From a virus (lineage: Duplodnaviria > Caudoviricetes), in IMG/VR virus record IMGVR_UViG_2706795367_000001, positions 32,001-96,000 of that record: a stretch of DNA of 64,000 nt; one strand, given 5' to 3'. The notes under the pieces were generated by a model. The model was not told the origin of the DNA and did no database searches. It saw nothing but the letters and a program-made list of their open reading frames with translations. Of this stretch, positions 55,534 to 62,175 are shown one piece after another. Numbering within the stretch: position 1 is the first letter of the stretch; each line of letters begins with the position of its first letter. The position numbers were made by a program, and so were the translations under genes.

Positions 55534-58500
55534 CCAACGAGGAATTGATCGAGAAGTTTGTCGAGAAACTCGCCGCGGAGCAGCCTGGATTCAAATACCT
55601 GGAACCACTGCCCGCCCCGCCCACGGAGGGCGAAATCCTCTGGGGACGCATAGAAGACCTGGAGCGCAAACACGAAGAACTCCTCGAGCGCTTCGAGTCT
55701 CACCGCCACGTTATCGGCGACGGGATGGTCAACGGCCGGTACGAGAAATTCGCTACCGGTGAGCCAATCAATGAAAGCTAGGTAGGAATGCACGATCCCG
55801 AATGCAACTGCGGCGGAATCCCGGAGGATGCCGTAGTTCTGCGCGAACTGAGGATTGTCGAATTCCTCAACCCGGAGGACGGGGAGATCTACAAGATCGA
55901 CCTGTCCCACGATGGCTCGGATAATGAGCTCCCCCTCGGGGGGATGCTCGAATTGGCGGAGTGGGCGAAAAGCATGGCGATATCGCCGCTTATCGCCGAT
56001 CTGGTCTACCAGTTTATGAACATCGAAGAAGAATAACTACCACCTTCAGGGGAACGAAGTGCGGTACTCAGAAAACAGGCCCATTTTGCTCAAGGGCATC
56101 CACGAGCAAGACCACGACAACCCCGCAACACCCAGGTGGATTTCTCCGCTGGCGTCGGGATTTCTGATCGCCAAGGAGCTGGGGGTAACGCCCCCGACTC
56201 CGAAGCAGAATCGCCGCGGCCGCAGAGCCGCTGGTGTGCGCCGGATTCGCCGGCGCCTACCCGGCTTGGCCATTCCGAAGTCCCGACAGCCCTGGAGGGT
56301 GAAATGATCTATGCGGCGACCACCGAGGATGGCTACACGAGCGTTCTTGTGATGGGGGATGAGCCCGCTTACACGCGGGACGACTGGGAGACCTATCACG
56401 TGTCCTATGGACTCGGGCTTTGTAACGGCAAGCTTGATCCGGAGTTTGTTATTCCGCTCCAGGTGACCGTAAGGGCCGGACTCAGGGGCGAGGCGAACAC
56501 GAAACGCCGGAGGACGGCTCCGGGCAACGACGCGGTCACCGCACTGCGCTTGATGATGGGTCTAATCAATGAGCAATGACAAAGTCCGTCACCGCGGCAA
56601 GCCCGCCGAGCCCTTCGCGGAGGTCGGTGCCCACGGGCGCATCACCCGCACCAAAGAAGACGGCCGACTGCGCATCACCCCCAAGGGTCATGGACTCCCA
56701 GCAATGGCGTACGTCTCCTGGAAAGACGGCGAGTTCTTCACCTGGGAGCGTCTCTCGGATTTGACCTTCACGAAGGGCCGCAAATGAGAAAGTGCTCTAC
56801 TTGCGACCAGCCGTTCGAGAACGGCGAGCCAACCGTCCTGGTGAGCGGTGAGGCCATGCACCCGTGGTGCGACCTCACGCCCGGCCGCGGCGGGACATGC
56901 GATACGGACAACTGCCATTGGCGGTGGACTTATCACGCTGGGGCGTGCGTCGTATGACCTGCGGGGAGCGGTGGCGCGACCCCTCGGAAGAGGACGACTG
57001 CGGCTGCATGAAAACGCAGGGGCACGGCGGGTGCCATCAATGTTGCTGCGGGTCGCGACATTGACCGCCTTCTCCAACTCCACCGAATTTGAGATCTGGT
57101 CCATCAACTGGTGTGGCCGGTGCGTGCGCGATGAGCATGCCGACTCCGGGTTCGGTTGCCCGATCCTTGACACGGTTTATCTAGAAAACAGAGTCCCGCC
57201 AGAGTGGAGCGAGGGTACCGATGACCTCAGAGACCGATACCACTGCTCAGAGTTCGAACCTTCGTAAGTGGCAGCAGCCGCTTTCGCCTGAAGCCATTGA
57301 AGATTTAGCGGTCCAGTTCGCAATCCTGCGCGATTGTTTCCGGCCGACTAAGCCCCGGATTCGTTCCCGCAAAGAGTTCTGGGAGCGGTGATGCGCCGGG
57401 GGCTGGCCCTGGCGCTGCACTGGCTGGCGCTGAGGATCTACCGGGACGAGCACACAGAGCGCATCGAAATAACCGACGAGTACGACATTGTCCGCTGCCG
57501 CGTAGAGGTGGCGGGGGATGAATCCGGCCACGGGGTTGATTCGGAGTATGACCTTCTACCCCCGGGCTGGACGATGCGCCAATTCAAGGATGGGGAGCGG
57601 TATCGGTGAATGAACTCACTCCGGAAATGGTCGCCCAGTACGATCAGCAGCTCGCGGCGTGCAACGAGTGTCTTGATAAGTTCGTCGAGACGTTTCAGAC
57701 CTTGTCGTGGTGCGTGGGGTCGGACCTGGTGACGATGGAGTTCGCCAACGATTTTGTTCGGCGGGTCGAGCTTGCCGAGAACGGCGAGGACACCGAAGAC
57801 GACTTCGGGGTGACTACCGAGTTCCTGGCGAACATGTTGACGGTGGCTATCAAGAGATTGGCGCGGGTATGATCCGGCTTCCCAATGGCGACATGATAGG
57901 CCCGCGCGACAGCGTAATCCGGGAATTGCTCACCGGTGAAGAGGTGCCTGTCGAGGACTGGGTTGTGGACCAGTCTGAGTTTGTGGACACCAACGCGTGG
58001 CGCTACTGCAAGTTCTATGATCTTCCCCCGGAGTTTTGGGCCGACATGCTTCACGATTACGTTTGGGAGCCCGAATGATATCCATCGCCCTGGTGGATGG
58101 GCGCCCAGTCACCCCCTGTAAAATGGGATGGCTGGTGGATGACACGGTAACCAAGGCTGCCCAGGTGGGGTTAACCTGGACCCCGGAAGACGTGCATCAG
58201 CACCTTCTGATCACGATGTTCGATTACCCTATACCGCCCGAGTTTCAGTCTCGCTATGACCAGATGAACGCAGATTTGAAGCGGGTGGGCGATACGGTTT
58301 GTCATTGTGGCGCTCCGGGCGAGCGATACGCCGGAAAGAGATACGCGATGTGCCCGCCGTGCGCCTATAGCGTGCATGAAACCTGCCTTTGCAGCGAGAG
58401 CGAGTGAACACGATGCAGTGCGACCTTTGCGACCTCGAGGAGAACCACGAGGACATGCATATTATCTACGCCCCGGCCGAGGAGTTTGACTGGCTCATGA

Positions 58501-58927
58501 AGATACTTGACGACGAAGAAGTATGAGCATAATCGAAGACCTCATGCTGCTCGAGGATCTTCGCGGGGCCATTGAGACCCCGCTCGACATGTCGGTATTT
58601 ACCGGGGGGAACATAGTGAAGTATTACCCGCGCCGCAAAGACGGTGTGTGCGCCATCCGCTTTGACGGGTCGCACGAATCGGCACAGAAGATTGCTCGCG
58701 CTATAGGCAAGACCGTCCAGCACGAGATTCCCGCCGACGTCCTGCCGGGCGACACCGGCGGCACGTTGACAATTCCCGGCGAGAGTTGCTCCGTTCGCCC
58801 GGGAGATGTGGTCGTCGTCTTCGACATGGCCCACATCGAATACCGTGACGGCACGGTGCTCTCGCGCAAGTTTAGCGTGATGAGCGCTGAGCGGTTCGAT
58901 AAGGAATACAGCCTTAACGGTCTCTGA
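55530..58927 (+). other. Run of small hypothetical genes (55530-55781, 55788-56036, 56304-56579, 56569-56787, 57061-57267, 57388-57609, 57606-57872, 57869-58078, 58075-58407, 58523-58927)
   Basis: Co-oriented ORFs with overlaps or RBS; no recognisable domains. Confidence 0.55.
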
Positions 58928-59049
58928 TTTTGTTGGGCACTCAAGGGCGCTAAAGACGCCGGTGGAGGGGCAACCCTGCGAAGCCGAGGGCCCCCCAGGA
59001 TTCGCCGCCCTGGAGATCAACTAGCGGCGGGCCAATGGTGTGATACCGC

Positions 59050-59367
59050 ATGGGCGTGATGCCCGAGAAAGAAGGCGAGATGCCGAAAGAATATATTGGA
59101 CAAGAGCCCCAGGAGTACGGTTCCATCGAGGTTGCATGGGGCAAGGACTCTGGATATGTGCAGGTGTCCGTAGCGGGCCCCGCGGGATGGCGCGAGCCCA
59201 CCCTGTGGCCGATCATTGCCCCCATGGTAGGGGGACGGCGCGAGAGCCCATACGACCCCGATAAGGGCCTCGATTGGCACGTGGAGCTGCGCTACCGCCA
59301 CGAGATCAACCACCTGATCCGAGTTCTGCGTAGGGCGCGTGACCAGGCTTTCGGTAAAGACGAATAG
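59050..59367 (+). CDS. Hypothetical protein
   Basis: INHLIRVLRRARDQAFGKDE conserved C-terminus. Confidence 0.65.
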   Translation: MGVMPEKEGEMPKEYIGQEPQEYGSIEVAWGKDSGYVQVSVAGPAGWREPTLWPIIAPMVGGRRESPYDPDKGLDWHVELRYRHEINHLIRVLRRARDQAFGKDE

Positions 59368-59434
59368 GATAGACTGGCCATGCCCGTGGTGGCGTCAACT
59401 GAGAGATCGGGATGAGAAACCCGGATACGGGCCA

Positions 59435-59500
59435 GCGCACGTAGCGATAGGGCAGGGGCTGTCGAGAGACGGCCCGGGGGTTCGATTCCTCACGCGCGCA
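59435..59500 (+). ncRNA. tRNA-like RNA with GAGA-capped stem replacing the anticodon loop
   Basis: GCGCACG/CGCGCGC-A; T-loop TTCGATT; GGGCTGTC-GAGA-GACGGCCC. Confidence 0.6.
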
Positions 59501-59610
59501 CGCAATGCAGGGGGATGCGCCGCGAGGCCCACTCCCAGCATCCCTATAGCTGAATATGGTAGAGTAGTTTTTACGACCAGGACCCGGTACCTCTGCCAGG
59601 CATTTCTCGG

Positions 59611-59747
59611 TCGAGGGTGTAGCTCAATAGAATAGAGCACCGTCGCATCCCCGCGTTGAGGACCGCTAAGCGGTGTGGGGACGGGACCGCGGAAGATGCC
59701 GGTAGGTGACCTCGCCAGTATGGGGCGGGCAAATCCGGCCACCCGAA
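59611..59747 (+). ncRNA. tRNA scaffold with insertions in anticodon arm and T-loop
   Basis: GGGTG-TA-GCTC..GAGC D-arm; GCCGG...CAAAT-CCGGC; CACCC. Confidence 0.55.
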
Positions 59748-59832
59748 TTTGCCCCGCATTTGCGGATGTAGGGGAAGGAACCCAGCCCAAGCTTCGGAGG
59801 TCGCTCCCGAGAAGCCTCTGGGCCGGGCTTGT

Positions 59833-59904
59833 GCGCTTGTGGTCGAATTGGAAAGACTCCTGGCTTCCACCCAGGTTATGCAGGTTCGAGTCCTGTCGAG
59901 CGCT
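59833..59904 (+). tRNA. tRNA-Gly(TCC)
   Basis: Full cloverleaf: GCGCTTG/CGAGCGC, CCTGG-CTTCCAC-CCAGG, GCAGG-TTCGAGT-CCTGT, discriminator T. Confidence 0.92.
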
Positions 59905-60272
59905 CGGAGGCTTAAGCTAACAAGCCGCCAGAAACTAAATTAGCCGATAGTTGGCAGACCTAGACGTTAAATCACCTCTGCTCGGCGTCCGCTTCCGTCG
60001 TTAACCCGAAGCCGAACTTGGTCGGAGCTTTGTGGCAGCGGGGCGATATAGCGCGCCCCAGGCCCTCCGACCGATTAAACGTCCCGCCAGATGGATGCGA
60101 GGATCGGGTCGCGCCCGGTCATTCTGGCCCCACCCCCGCCCGCCCGTTCCGGACTAAGACGCAAATACGGGTCAAGTCAGAGGGGCTGACTTCGAAGCGG
60201 CGGGACTCCAAGGGTTTCAATTTTAAGGAGGTCTTTCCATGCGTTAGGTAACTAACAATGGAAGGAGCGGTA

Positions 60273-60572
60273 ATGAGCCGCACATACAGAGATCAGAAGA
60301 AGTATCTCTACAAGCACCATCACGAGGTCTGCACCCGCAGCCATTTCTACCTGGATGATGGCTCCATGCGGTGGTGCTGGCGCGCGCACGACTGCGAATG
60401 CGCCGACTGGTGGGACTGGAGCATGAAACACTGCCCGGTCCCGAGTTGGTGGAACCGCGATATTCGTAGGGCGGAGCGCGCCTTCACCCGCAACAAGATG
60501 CAACGCGCCCGCGCCGGTCACATCGACTGGTCGGCCGTGGATGAAAAGCGCGGAGATGACTATTATTGGTGA
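60273..60572 (+). CDS. Hypothetical protein
   Basis: MSRTYR..PSWWNR..R.ER motif; AAGGAG RBS. Confidence 0.65.
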   Translation: MSRTYRDQKKYLYKHHHEVCTRSHFYLDDGSMRWCWRAHDCECADWWDWSMKHCPVPSWWNRDIRRAERAFTRNKMQRARAGHIDWSAVDEKRGDDYYW

Positions 60573-61004
60573 CTTCTACTTCATGCCCTGCGCCGCTTGC
60601 GGTGGCCGGATGCTGAGGTCCAACATGGCCGCCATCTACCCCGCCGAAGGGATGATTCACAGCCAATGCGCCAAGAGGTTCGCGGAATTGGGCTTCGGCG
60701 AGTATCTGGAGGTGAATGATGGCTGACTACTTCACCCGCGGGGGCCGGGGGCCTTTCGCCTCCTATTCGGAGGCCGCGGAGGCTGGCGCGCCCCTTCTGG
60801 ACCTCTCCACCATCAGCGAAGACGGCTCCGAGGTGATCCGCCTACTCGCCGATGATCCGGTGCTGTTCGCCATCTTCGAGCTTGGCCGGCGGCTAGGTGA
60901 AGAGGGTCTCTAGAACGGTACGCAAATCCCGAGGTGCTGCCACCTCTCCCGTTAAGTCGGTCGGATTGCGTCGGCTGGCCCCCGCCGACTGAAGTGGGGC
61001 GGTG

Positions 61005-61076
61005 TGGCCCGTAGCTCAATTGGCAGAGCAGCCGGCGGTAATTCGGCGCGTCTCGGTTCGAGTCCGGGCGGGCTAC
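61005..61076 (+). tRNA. Atypical tRNA, anticodon GTA (Tyr-like)
   Basis: TGGCCCG/CGGGCTA, GCTC/GAGC, GCCGG-CGGTAAT-TCGGC, CTCGG-TTCGAGT-CCGGG; G at position 33, short variable loop. Confidence 0.7.
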
Positions 61077-61099
61077 CTACTTTTCCCGTGAGGTGTTCG

Positions 61100-61540
61100 A
61101 TGATCCGGCCGGAAATCAGCGTAGAAAAAAGCCTGTGGTGCATCGCCCTGCCGGGGGTGCCTATCGCGGCCGAGGCGTGGTTCTGCGATACCTGCGTGAC
61201 CGATTTTATCGACGCTGCCCGCGAGTACGCGTGGGATTGGACGGATCACCTGCACCGGGCGCCGAACCACGAGCAGAACGCCGACCTGGTGTGCTTCATT
61301 CAAGCCTCCACCGACCGGCAACTCCGGAATTGGGTTTTCTCGGGTCTACGGTGCGTCTGTGGGGATGTTTACGAGGATCACGAGCCCAAAGACCTCTCGG
61401 TCCCGTTGGTGAACGATAATCCGCTCTACCCGATCCCGAACGGCTCGGTTTCGACTATCGCCACCACCAAGCCTTTCTCCACCTACGATATCGCCGCCTG
61501 CCACTGCGGCTGCACGATTTTTGATTTGTTGACCGACTAG
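61100..61540 (+). CDS. Antitoxin-like (HicB/RelB-type C-terminal) domain protein
   Basis: LPGVPIAA..DAAREYA.DW...APNH..N..LV..I....D.QLR.W resembles actinobacterial antitoxins. Confidence 0.55.
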   Translation: MIRPEISVEKSLWCIALPGVPIAAEAWFCDTCVTDFIDAAREYAWDWTDHLHRAPNHEQNADLVCFIQASTDRQLRNWVFSGLRCVCGDVYEDHEPKDLSVPLVNDNPLYPIPNGSVSTIATTKPFSTYDIAACHCGCTIFDLLTD

Positions 61541-61546
61541 GGGAAC

Positions 61547-61957
61547 ATGTCTGTCTACGATGAGGCTGTAGAGCTTCTGAGAAGCAATATCGGGTCGCTA
61601 CCCGATGAAGACTTCGGCCACCTCAACCTTTTTCCATTCACGTACGAATCCGACGAGACCAACGGCATCAAACTCAAGGTTTGCATAGCCATCGTGAAGC
61701 TTCTCCAGGATCACGGCTTTCTCGCCGCAGACGACGCGAAACCGCTCGACACGAGCCGTTCGGTGCGGGTGGCCTGCCAATCCTGCGATACCGCATTGTT
61801 CAGTGTGGTGGCGGGGGAGTCGGGCGCGCTGGTGCCGGCGTCGTACTTGATTCAGCAGGTGGGCCGCTTGGACCCGAATTGCCCGCACAGGCCGATGACG
61901 CTGGATGATCAGCGCCGGCTGATTCAAGAGGCACTCGAGGAAGCGGGGAAGCAGTGA
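61547..61957 (+). CDS. Hypothetical protein
   Basis: RBS; CQSC motif. Confidence 0.6.
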   Translation: MSVYDEAVELLRSNIGSLPDEDFGHLNLFPFTYESDETNGIKLKVCIAIVKLLQDHGFLAADDAKPLDTSRSVRVACQSCDTALFSVVAGESGALVPASYLIQQVGRLDPNCPHRPMTLDDQRRLIQEALEEAGKQ

Positions 61958-62175
61958 ACGAAGAAGAAAAGCTCCAGATGATGGGCTCATTGATGAGCCG
62001 GATGACCGCGGCGTCGGCCGAGGAAGCCCGCTTCACCGATGAGCAGATTGCATCCTTGATCAACATCTTTATTCCACGTTTCGTGATGGAAGCCCCTGGC
62101 ATGAAGCCGGCGGGCCTCACCTGCCGCATCGATCAGGATGAGCGGGGCTGGACGATCCGGATCGACAAGCCGTGA
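61954..62175 (+). CDS. Hypothetical protein
   Basis: GTGA overlap. Confidence 0.55.
   Translation: MNEEEKLQMMGSLMSRMTAASAEEARFTDEQIASLINIFIPRFVMEAPGMKPAGLTCRIDQDERGWTIRIDKP

Follow-up and report, generated by a model that had tools for sequence, protein, structure and literature searches.

Between positions 59368 and 60224 of the DNA analyzed here (the window, a 64,000-nucleotide (nt) stretch of a virus record that is complete at 110,764 bp), the two flanking genes enclose a non-coding island that holds a tRNA-Gly gene, an anticodon-less tRNA mimic, and several further units. Judging from its sequence and that of its relatives, we tentatively propose, with a confidence somewhat short of even, that this is a co-transcribed island of independent small RNA cassettes, which would be matured at its tRNA and tRNA-like units. 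The sequence match of the region identifies the window phage as a Cluster J mycobacteriophage of the genus Omegavirus. Hannaconda shows 97.7% identity across 93% of the query; Omega, LittleE and Pound match the region piecewise, and about 30 Baka-type phages have only the tRNA-Gly side in common with the window. The Cluster J genome paper contains no discussion of the island region. Cluster J is well studied, with M. smegmatis as host and genetic tools at hand, and it appears to carry a slot for the exchange of small RNA cassettes, the contents of which include a tRNA, non-decoding tRNA mimics and, in relatives, an orphan abiF RNA. If the cassettes are indeed made as RNAs, this would be a tractable system for finding their binding partners.

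The units discussed below are as follows; MFE denotes the minimum-free-energy fold, and z-scores of single modules are relative to dinucleotide shuffles.
59368-59434, + strand: left edge, corresponding to the first module of an earlier note on this DNA; weak irregular fold, z -1.66
59435-59500, + strand: anticodon-less tRNA mimic with a tRNA-like top half, z -3.41
59505-59541, + strand: bulged hairpin with the tip GCC-GCGA-GGC (59519-59528), MFE, z -1.38
59557-59565, + strand: extended -10-like box TGG-TAGAGT, within the D-arm-like relic of the earlier note
59615-59744, + strand: cloverleaf-shaped element of 130 nt, MFE in isolation
59727-59754, + strand: long hairpin GGGCAAAUCCGG-CCAC-CCGAAUUUGCCC (inverted repeat I3, 12 nt, 92%)
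59752-59774, + strand: second hairpin, overlapping the 3' strand of the long hairpin
59781-59828, + strand: branched hairpin in the tRNA-Gly leader, MFE, z -1.41
59833-59905, + strand: tRNA-Gly(UCC), found by ARAGORN and by the Rfam tRNA model (61.4 bits); CCA not encoded
59906-60017, + strand: tRNA-Gly trailer, relatively AT-rich in its first 70 nt
60020-60072, + strand: stable hairpin, z -3.64, with none of 200 shuffles as good
60073-60125, + strand: 52-nt cassette with the hairpin GAUCGGG-UCGCG-CCCGGUC, in the window phage and Hannaconda only
60126-60217, + strand: right end of the island, with the C-rich tract CCCCACCCCCGCCCGCCCG, the hairpin GUCAG-AGGGG-CUGAC, and GGCGGGAC
25819-25881 (within 25803-25935), outside the island: mini-tRNA with the 7-bp acceptor GCGCACG/CGUGCGC, A73 and an encoded CCA

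The earlier note had described the island as free of open reading frames (ORFs). Taken literally this is wrong, because seven ORFs of 54-131 amino acids are present in this GC-rich DNA, but none of them looks coding. The codon-position GC difference is 0.2-0.46 in the flanking genes and mostly no more than 0.2 between about 59320 and 60160, and every candidate ORF is interrupted by 1- and 2-nt insertions or deletions (indels) among relatives. None of the seven matches PHROGs or Pfam, whereas all flanking genes match PHROGs. The stretch 59368-60224 is therefore non-coding. It might be argued that small protein genes are hidden here, given that ORFs of 64-131 amino acids lie on both strands and that some are annotated in the database records of relatives, as follows.
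L002:2492-2947: Omega gp190 and gp191, annotated hypothetical proteins over the stretch
L004:2558-2767: LittleE gp187, annotated hypothetical protein over the stretch
L001:2619-2888: Hannaconda gp175, annotated hypothetical protein on the opposite strand
L005:1677-2420: Baka gp186-189, annotated hypothetical proteins over the stretch
However, these annotations conflict in strand and frame between phages, and together with the indels, the flat codon-position GC and the empty PHROG and Pfam searches, this makes hidden genes highly improbable. In Omega gp190, the opening codons of a Baka gene are joined to the non-coding stretch. Given the strand and frame disagreement and the missing coding signals, it is probable that the hypothetical proteins annotated here in Omega, LittleE, Hannaconda and Baka do not represent genes.

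The first of the two tRNA-shaped units is the tRNA mimic at 59435-59500. Its acceptor (59435-41/59493-99) forms six of seven base pairs, with an A5.C68 mismatch, and is followed by U8 and A9. An 11-nt stub occupies the D-arm position, and an 8-bp helix (59456-63/59468-75) capped by a GAGA tetraloop replaces the anticodon and variable arms. The T arm, GGGGG-UUCGAUU-CCUCA, has a stem with four of five pairs, including one G-U wobble, and the consensus loop UUCGAUU; the discriminator is A 59500, and CCA is not encoded. The mimic thus has the acceptor, the discriminator, the T stem and the 7-nt T loop (UUCRANY) of a tRNA, and lacks the 5-bp anticodon stem with its 7-nt loop and a D arm with G18 and G19. 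It cannot decode. When compared with the tRNA clan (CL00001, including RF00005), its best match was tRNA-Sec at 19.8 bits (gathering score 47; E 0.22 on 476 nt), an alignment in which the mimic helix takes the place of the variable arm and the D and anticodon arms are deleted. Since this match is below threshold and these arms are deleted, the score does not place the mimic in the tRNA family, even though its top half resembles that of a tRNA. An ARAGORN call of the mimic appears only with the option -ps80, which yields 156 calls in 110 kb, so that this call has no evidential value. In the four phages that carry the mimic, all four changes fit the fold: one base differs in the stub that takes the place of the D arm, a U.G pair of the helix becomes C-G, GG is inserted at the junction, and the discriminator is either A or U.

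The acceptor strand GCGCACG and A73 of the mimic are identical to those of the mini-tRNA at 25819. This second element has a compact four-way structure with two short arms, a consensus T arm and an ACCA end; a hairpin lies on its 5' side and a canonical intrinsic terminator on its 3' side. It has two variants and is kept in about 39 Cluster J phages; between the variants, the middle hairpin is retained via a compensatory U-A to C-G swap, and the Baka-type variant also has a terminator, of different sequence. Neither ARAGORN nor Rfam calls the mini-tRNA, and pattern scans of contigs gave no exact host match for it. We considered it as an attP site and rejected this, because it maps to about 62.6 kb of Omega, where attP lies at 54.67 kb (PMC3706429). 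Only four copies of the T-loop 11-mer GGTTCRANYCC exist across the 110-kb genome: one in each of the two tRNAs, one in the mimic and one at window position 25855. A crude detector that looks for an acceptor combined with a T arm found seven genome sites, against 2.9 +/- 1.5 in shuffles. The mimic passes only at threshold, so that this detector test is weak when taken alone. The apparent paralogy with the mini-tRNA is the stronger argument.

RNase P and the CCA-adding enzyme recognize the top half formed by the acceptor and T arm and act on such minihelices, and the maturation that we propose would follow from this. The island would be transcribed together with its neighbors by read-through from the gene that ends at 59367, possibly with an additional start at the extended -10-like box (59557-59565). 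Host tRNA-maturation enzymes would then cut the precursor at the two tRNA-shaped units, with 5' cleavage by RNase P, 3' trimming and CCA addition. The products would be a functional tRNA-Gly(UCC) and a stable, non-decoding mimic, while the cloverleaf/hairpin unit (59615-59774) and the hairpin at 60020-60072 might be separate small RNAs, or might serve as stabilizing or terminating ends.

Pairwise and multiple alignments of the window phage, Hannaconda, Omega, LittleE, Pound and Baka resolve the region into cassettes of 40-210 nt with sharp boundaries, and with clean gains and losses of 50-450 nt, distributed as follows.
59374-59556: window phage, Hannaconda and LittleE; 5'-truncated in Omega, none in Pound
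59557-59777: window phage, Hannaconda, Omega and Pound; in LittleE only to about 59750
74-nt hairpin-rich insert after 59773: Omega and Pound only (L003:2684-2768 in Pound)
59776-59832: all but the Baka type and LittleE
tRNA-Gly and its trailer: all but LittleE
60014-60072: all but Omega and LittleE
60073-60125: window phage and Hannaconda only
60126-60217: absent from Omega; LittleE retains only the last 17 nt or so
insert of about 78 nt ahead of the leader of the next gene: Pound and Baka
This distribution suggests that the units of the island are independent of one another, with relatives carrying different subsets. It also bears on the idea of one large ornate RNA with an embedded tRNA, of the GOLLD or ROOL kind, which the length of about 850 nt, the phage origin and the embedded tRNA bring to mind as a general likeness. 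Indels and swaps of 50-450 nt in relatives preclude a single global fold, the z-score of the whole region is only -1.1, and no GOLLD or ROOL model matched at E <= 10 over 58500-62000 or 59360-59835; we regard this idea as scarcely credible. The 74-nt insert, which the window phage lacks, is GC-rich and forms one long and one short hairpin (z -2.65). In the Baka type, an unrelated structured stretch of about 270 nt (L005:2160-2428), of which 177 nt fold at z -2.34, extends from a TGGTACACT box to tRNA-Gly. It ends with a consensus T-loop hairpin, GGGTTCGATTCCC (L005:2354-2370), 53 nt ahead of tRNA-Gly.

The cassette string of sister phages also contains a bona fide small RNA. An Rfam search placed the abiF RNA (RF03085, gathering score 37 bits) where the homologous island begins on its left side in Pound (L003:2433-2469, 54.9 bits), LittleE (L004:2462-2497, 49.9 bits) and Baka (L005:2123-2158, 39.7 bits), and these matches are nearly identical to the family consensus. 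In LittleE, about 50 nt that carry it are cleanly inserted where the upstream stop codon otherwise meets the start of the island. The same RNA is absent from the whole genome of the window phage at E <= 10, and from Hannaconda and Omega. The HEPN toxin AbiF has the abiF motif as its RNA antitoxin, and RCd22 neutralizes this toxin (bioRxiv 10.1101/2025.04.15.648962). No Abi_2/AbiF protein was found in the six Cluster J genomes tested. Given that the motif is an antitoxin RNA and that these phages have no AbiF gene, it is plausible that the orphan phage abiF RNA acts as an antitoxin-mimic decoy. Farther right, directly 5' of tRNA-Tyr, a DUF3800-IV-like RNA lies at 60902-60983; at 42.9 bits (E 5e-5), the match falls short of the gathering score, 60.7. 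Its inner junction fits the consensus well, it also occurs in Omega and LittleE, and the genome has no gene for a DUF3800 protein. With its abiF, DUF3800-IV-like and Baka T-arm-like elements, this part of Cluster J genomes thus appears to be a site at which small RNA elements lie beside tRNAs and are exchanged.

RNA antitoxin mimics are a known phage tactic that has rarely been documented, and phage tRNA genes are now viewed as counters to tRNA-targeting defenses (PMC10264068, PMC11555353). We considered the possibility that the island is an RNA anti-defense arsenal, in which the role of decoy would fall to the mimic, to its conserved paralogue (25819-25881) and perhaps to the tRNA-scaffold RNA of 130 nt; this is rather unlikely. 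The targets of such decoys might be host proteins that attack or bind the acceptor and T arm of tRNAs, or other RNA-binding abortive-infection toxins; this part is equally speculative and also more doubtful than not. That the cassettes would be interchangeable with the orphan abiF RNA and the DUF3800-IV-like RNA, and swapped according to the defenses met, is likewise a distant prospect.

Turning to the cassettes themselves, the left edge follows directly after the stop codon (59365-59367) of the upstream gene (PHROG 10659, ending at 59367) and contains a small conserved hairpin, CGGG-AUGAGAAA-CCCG; in Omega, the 5' half of the module at 59382-59434 is swapped for a different sequence. The hairpin at 59505-59541 is invariant in its four carrier phages except for one unpaired base. 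A D-arm-like relic had been noticed next to it, and the motif TAGCTGAATATGGTAGAGTA is present, but the same letters read equally well as an extended -10 box, TGG-TAGAGT. As a promoter, this box is a chance-level motif that the consensus promoter scan does not call. It forms the left boundary of the cassette in common with Pound, and the same junction, right after the abiF hairpin, reads TGGTACAAT in Pound and TGGTACACT in Baka.

The 130-nt element at 59615-59744 is closed by a 5-bp stem, GGGUG/CACCC (59615-19/59740-44), which is followed by UA, a D arm (GCUC/GAGC) and A, then by a long branched arm in the anticodon position, 5 nt (AAGAU), and a stem, GCCGG/CCGGC, with an inserted hairpin. Folded in isolation, all five homologues give the same four-way junction with tRNA-like spacing as their MFE. 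In Omega and Pound, the hairpin inserted in the "T loop" differs in sequence and still pairs; all seven substitution events are compatible with the fold, and two pairs covary. By eye, the junction spacing matches that of a tRNA, although the acceptor has only 5 bp, and the 7-nt T loop and G18 G19 are lacking; no tRNA model matched the element at E <= 10. Its z-score of only -1.24 argues against the fold. The long hairpin at 59727-59754 overlaps its 3' side. It measures 12 bp here, against about 15-20 bp in the relatives Hannaconda, Omega and Pound. Because the changes in relatives lengthen this competing hairpin, either fold may be the selected one, and the two may also alternate. The LittleE deletion starts at about 59750.

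The tRNA-Gly(UCC) is invariant in about 38 Cluster J phages. G1:C72, C2:G71, G3:C70, U73, C35 and C36 make up the bacterial glycine identity set, and all of them are present; by all sequence criteria, the tRNA would be functional. In the leader hairpin (59781-59828), both of the substitutions seen in Omega and Pound fall in loops, and the Baka-type phages have unrelated sequence there. The first 70 nt of the trailer (59906-59975) are identical at 69 of 70 positions to Pound, Baka and Redno2, and thus conserved as strongly as the tRNA itself, while the next 42 nt match at 36 of 41, the types differing by 10-12% immediately beyond the 70 nt. The trailer has no stable fold (z about 0). Both strand pairs of a pseudoknot-like element proposed within it are present (GGCTT 59909-13/AAGCC 59922-26 and GCTAA 59916-20/TTAGC 59940-44), but a stable fold is not, and the element lies inside an invariant block.

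The hairpin at 60020-60072, proposed earlier as the stem GGTCGGAG (60020-27)/CTCCGACC (60065-72), has an outer stem of 8-10 bp, GGUCGGAG/CUCCGACC, and an inner hairpin, GGGGC/GCCCC. One inner pair shows a compensatory swap from C-G to U-A in Pound, Baka and Redno2; there is one disruptive change in Redno2, and Omega and LittleE lack the hairpin. The adjoining 52-nt cassette (60073-60125) is a clean indel relative to Pound and Baka, and the right end (60126-60217) is about 90% identical to both of them, with a 17-nt indel. A domain that was thought to span this part, closed by GTCCCGCC (60081-88) and GGCGGGAC (60199-206), was not supported: the strands are present and TCCA follows, and the 8-bp stem is at chance level for the length and GC content, with its 5' strand inside the 52-nt insert that is absent from Pound and Baka. 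The sequence 60078-60215 folds at z +0.3.

Beyond the island, the next gene (PHROG 6811) starts at 60258 or 60273. A very stable, conserved hairpin with a GUAA tetraloop lies at 60233-60265 (z -4.65 to -5.4), after a strong Shine-Dalgarno sequence. It holds a 2-codon mini-ORF, ATG CGT TAG (60239-60247), and sequesters both ATG 60258 and GGAAGGAG, the Shine-Dalgarno sequence of ATG 60273. The region 60225-60275 could possibly serve as a translational-coupling switch. A protein-anchored search with the downstream gene returned known isolates and one unrelated, island-less phage (L024), in which the leader hairpin accompanies the gene. Since this contig has the gene and its leader without the island, we place the right boundary of the island at about 60220.

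These observations also bear on the possibility that the region acts in cis and adjusts the level of read-through that passes from the tRNA unit to the genes beyond it. The parts of such a control region would be the mutually exclusive folds at 59697-59774, the hairpin at 60020-60072 and the C-rich tract at 60126-60150, acting as attenuator, terminators or a Rho-loading site; like the cis-acting role itself, this assignment is improbable. Three overlapping alternative hairpins are present, the variation in relatives lengthens the long one, the C-rich, G-poor tract is evident in the sequence, and a hairpin of z -4.65 with a mini-ORF covers the start of the next gene. However, no U-tracts follow the hairpins, the terminator scan of the island was empty, and the putative control elements are deleted in Omega and LittleE. 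Furthermore, the leader hairpin and mini-ORF stay with the downstream gene in L024, which indicates that this gene does not need the island.

Several results weigh against the proposal of co-transcribed RNA cassettes. The earlier note had seen a dense array of folded modules, and this was not borne out statistically. The 856-nt stretch folds at z -1.11, with both strands alike. Windows of 70 nt have a mean z of -0.22 in the island, with 6% below -2, compared with -0.45 to -0.53 and 10-13% in the coding flanks. When the modules are folded singly, only two of 10 (59435-59500 at z -3.41 and 60018-60075 at z -3.64) beat dinucleotide shuffles, and the rest range from z -1.66 to +1.07. With flanks included, the long hairpin beats the T stem and acceptor of the cloverleaf as the MFE, and the mimic passes the crude detector at threshold only, where about three chance hits per genome are expected. 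A scan for consensus promoters and terminators came up empty within the island. The tests of structural conservation span 4-38 closely related phages, and covariation within them is thin, with few events. Among about 38 phages of Cluster J, no more than 4-5 have the cassettes at 59374-59777, and both LittleE, without tRNA-Gly and 450 nt, and Omega, without 208 nt, are viable isolates. Finally, none of the listed sequencing runs that contain the stretch is on record as RNA. In four runs, apart from one adapter-flanked fragment of 134 nt (60117-60250), the contigs were all of DNA type and came from Baka-like and LittleE-like phages; the fragment is from a library labeled RNA-Seq and is probably DNA, and none of this bears on expression.

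Searches by exact pattern for more distant homologues, for use in covariation, covered IMG/VR as well as metagenome and genome contigs and gave known isolates or nothing. Long-range pairing of 59511-22 with 59641-52 is chance-level complementarity, and the tRNA leader-trailer pairings 59826-38/59914-26 and 59812-23/59902-13 (I4 and I6) are also at chance level and are not kept in Baka. A dispersed repeat or miniature inverted-repeat transposable element was rejected, since no cassette has a second copy in the genome. Tandem Repeats Finder reported only an 11-nt x 2 repeat at 59742-59763, and no ToxI-type tandem direct repeats (about 30-40 nt). ARAGORN -m found no tmRNA at a relaxed threshold, and ARAGORN with introns or relaxed thresholds gave noise only.

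The main competing explanation is that the island is the debris of a former tRNA-gene cluster, with recombination scars around one functional tRNA-Gly; this is on the unlikely side and yet deserves serious attention. In detail, and with a similarly limited likelihood, the tRNA-like pieces would be decaying pseudogenes and the hairpins would be incidental in DNA of 62% GC. The lack of excess structure, the failure of all but two of the 10 modules to beat shuffles, and the dispensability of the modules in most Cluster J phages are what such debris would lead one to expect. The unrelated T-arm-like remnant GGGTTCGATTCCC upstream of tRNA-Gly in the Baka type is as tRNA-gene turnover predicts, and in Omega part of the stretch is joined to a foreign ORF start. 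However, the anticodon arm of the mimic is not decayed but replaced by a perfect 8-bp, GNRA-capped helix, and its acceptor is that of a clearly functional mini-tRNA. In addition, all substitutions in the mimic and the cloverleaf are compatible with structure, compensatory swaps are present, mycobacteriophage genomes are otherwise tightly packed, and a functional-looking abiF RNA occurs in the same string of sister phages. If the island is debris only, the practical yield is smaller: several annotated hypothetical proteins are probably not genes.

Co-transcribed RNA cassettes remain our tentative preference. The earlier note had inferred a polycistronic operon of non-coding RNAs processed at tRNA-like punctuation; the arrangement fits this, but only three or four of the 10 modules have support beyond chance. 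All stems and motifs listed there were found in place when checked base by base against the sequence, and it was right that standard tools (ARAGORN, and Rfam at gathering thresholds) find only tRNA-Gly in the stretch; both programs call tRNA-Tyr farther right. A multi-RNA unit is consistent with a non-coding stretch within a + strand run that takes in all neighboring genes and both tRNAs (tRNA-Gly and tRNA-Tyr), with a real tRNA beside a convincing acceptor/T-arm mimic of the kind that RNase P accepts, and with the abiF motif in the same string of sister phages.

Among known systems, the tRNA region of phage T4 seems to be the nearest precedent, as it contains the small, stable non-tRNA RNAs C and D, of unknown role, on the same transcripts as tRNAs (PMC3014915). 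Like that region, the island would combine tRNAs with small RNAs, in an arrangement that is same-strand and adjacent, with tRNA-like ends. Unlike it, the island is known from sequence, whereas the T4 RNAs were demonstrated experimentally; there is no sequence relation, and the host and the cassette variability differ. YrlA and other bacterial Y RNAs are non-coding RNAs with a tRNA-like module bound by Rsr/Ro60. The element at 59615-59744 resembles them in its tRNA-shaped domain with altered arms, and differs in that the 110-kb genome has no TROVE/Ro60 gene (PF05731) and that no Rfam Y-RNA model matched. GOLLD and ROOL are large phage-associated RNAs. The island shares with them its phage origin, a length of several hundred nt and a position beside or around tRNAs, but has no model match, no global fold signal and modular indels. 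The pseudo-ToxI of phage PhiTE, an orphan antitoxin-type RNA in a phage, is paralleled by the orphan abiF RNA that sister phages carry in their cassette string in the absence of AbiF, and this analogy suggests that the island may be a slot for trans-acting small RNAs. In contrast to orphan antitoxin RNAs, the window cassettes match no known antitoxin RNA family and have no ToxI-type repeats. A system described in 2016, as cited in PMC10690425, shares with the mimic a coaxial top half of acceptor and T arm with a consensus T loop; the mimic differs in having no anticodon loop, a D-arm stub and scores below all tRNA thresholds. Phage tRNA regions are already known to contain small RNAs and elements that resemble tRNAs. 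What is new is the design of the mimic, which has no anticodon, is capped by a GNRA loop and uses the same acceptor as a conserved mini-tRNA, together with the apparent exchange of cassettes with an orphan abiF RNA in sister phages.

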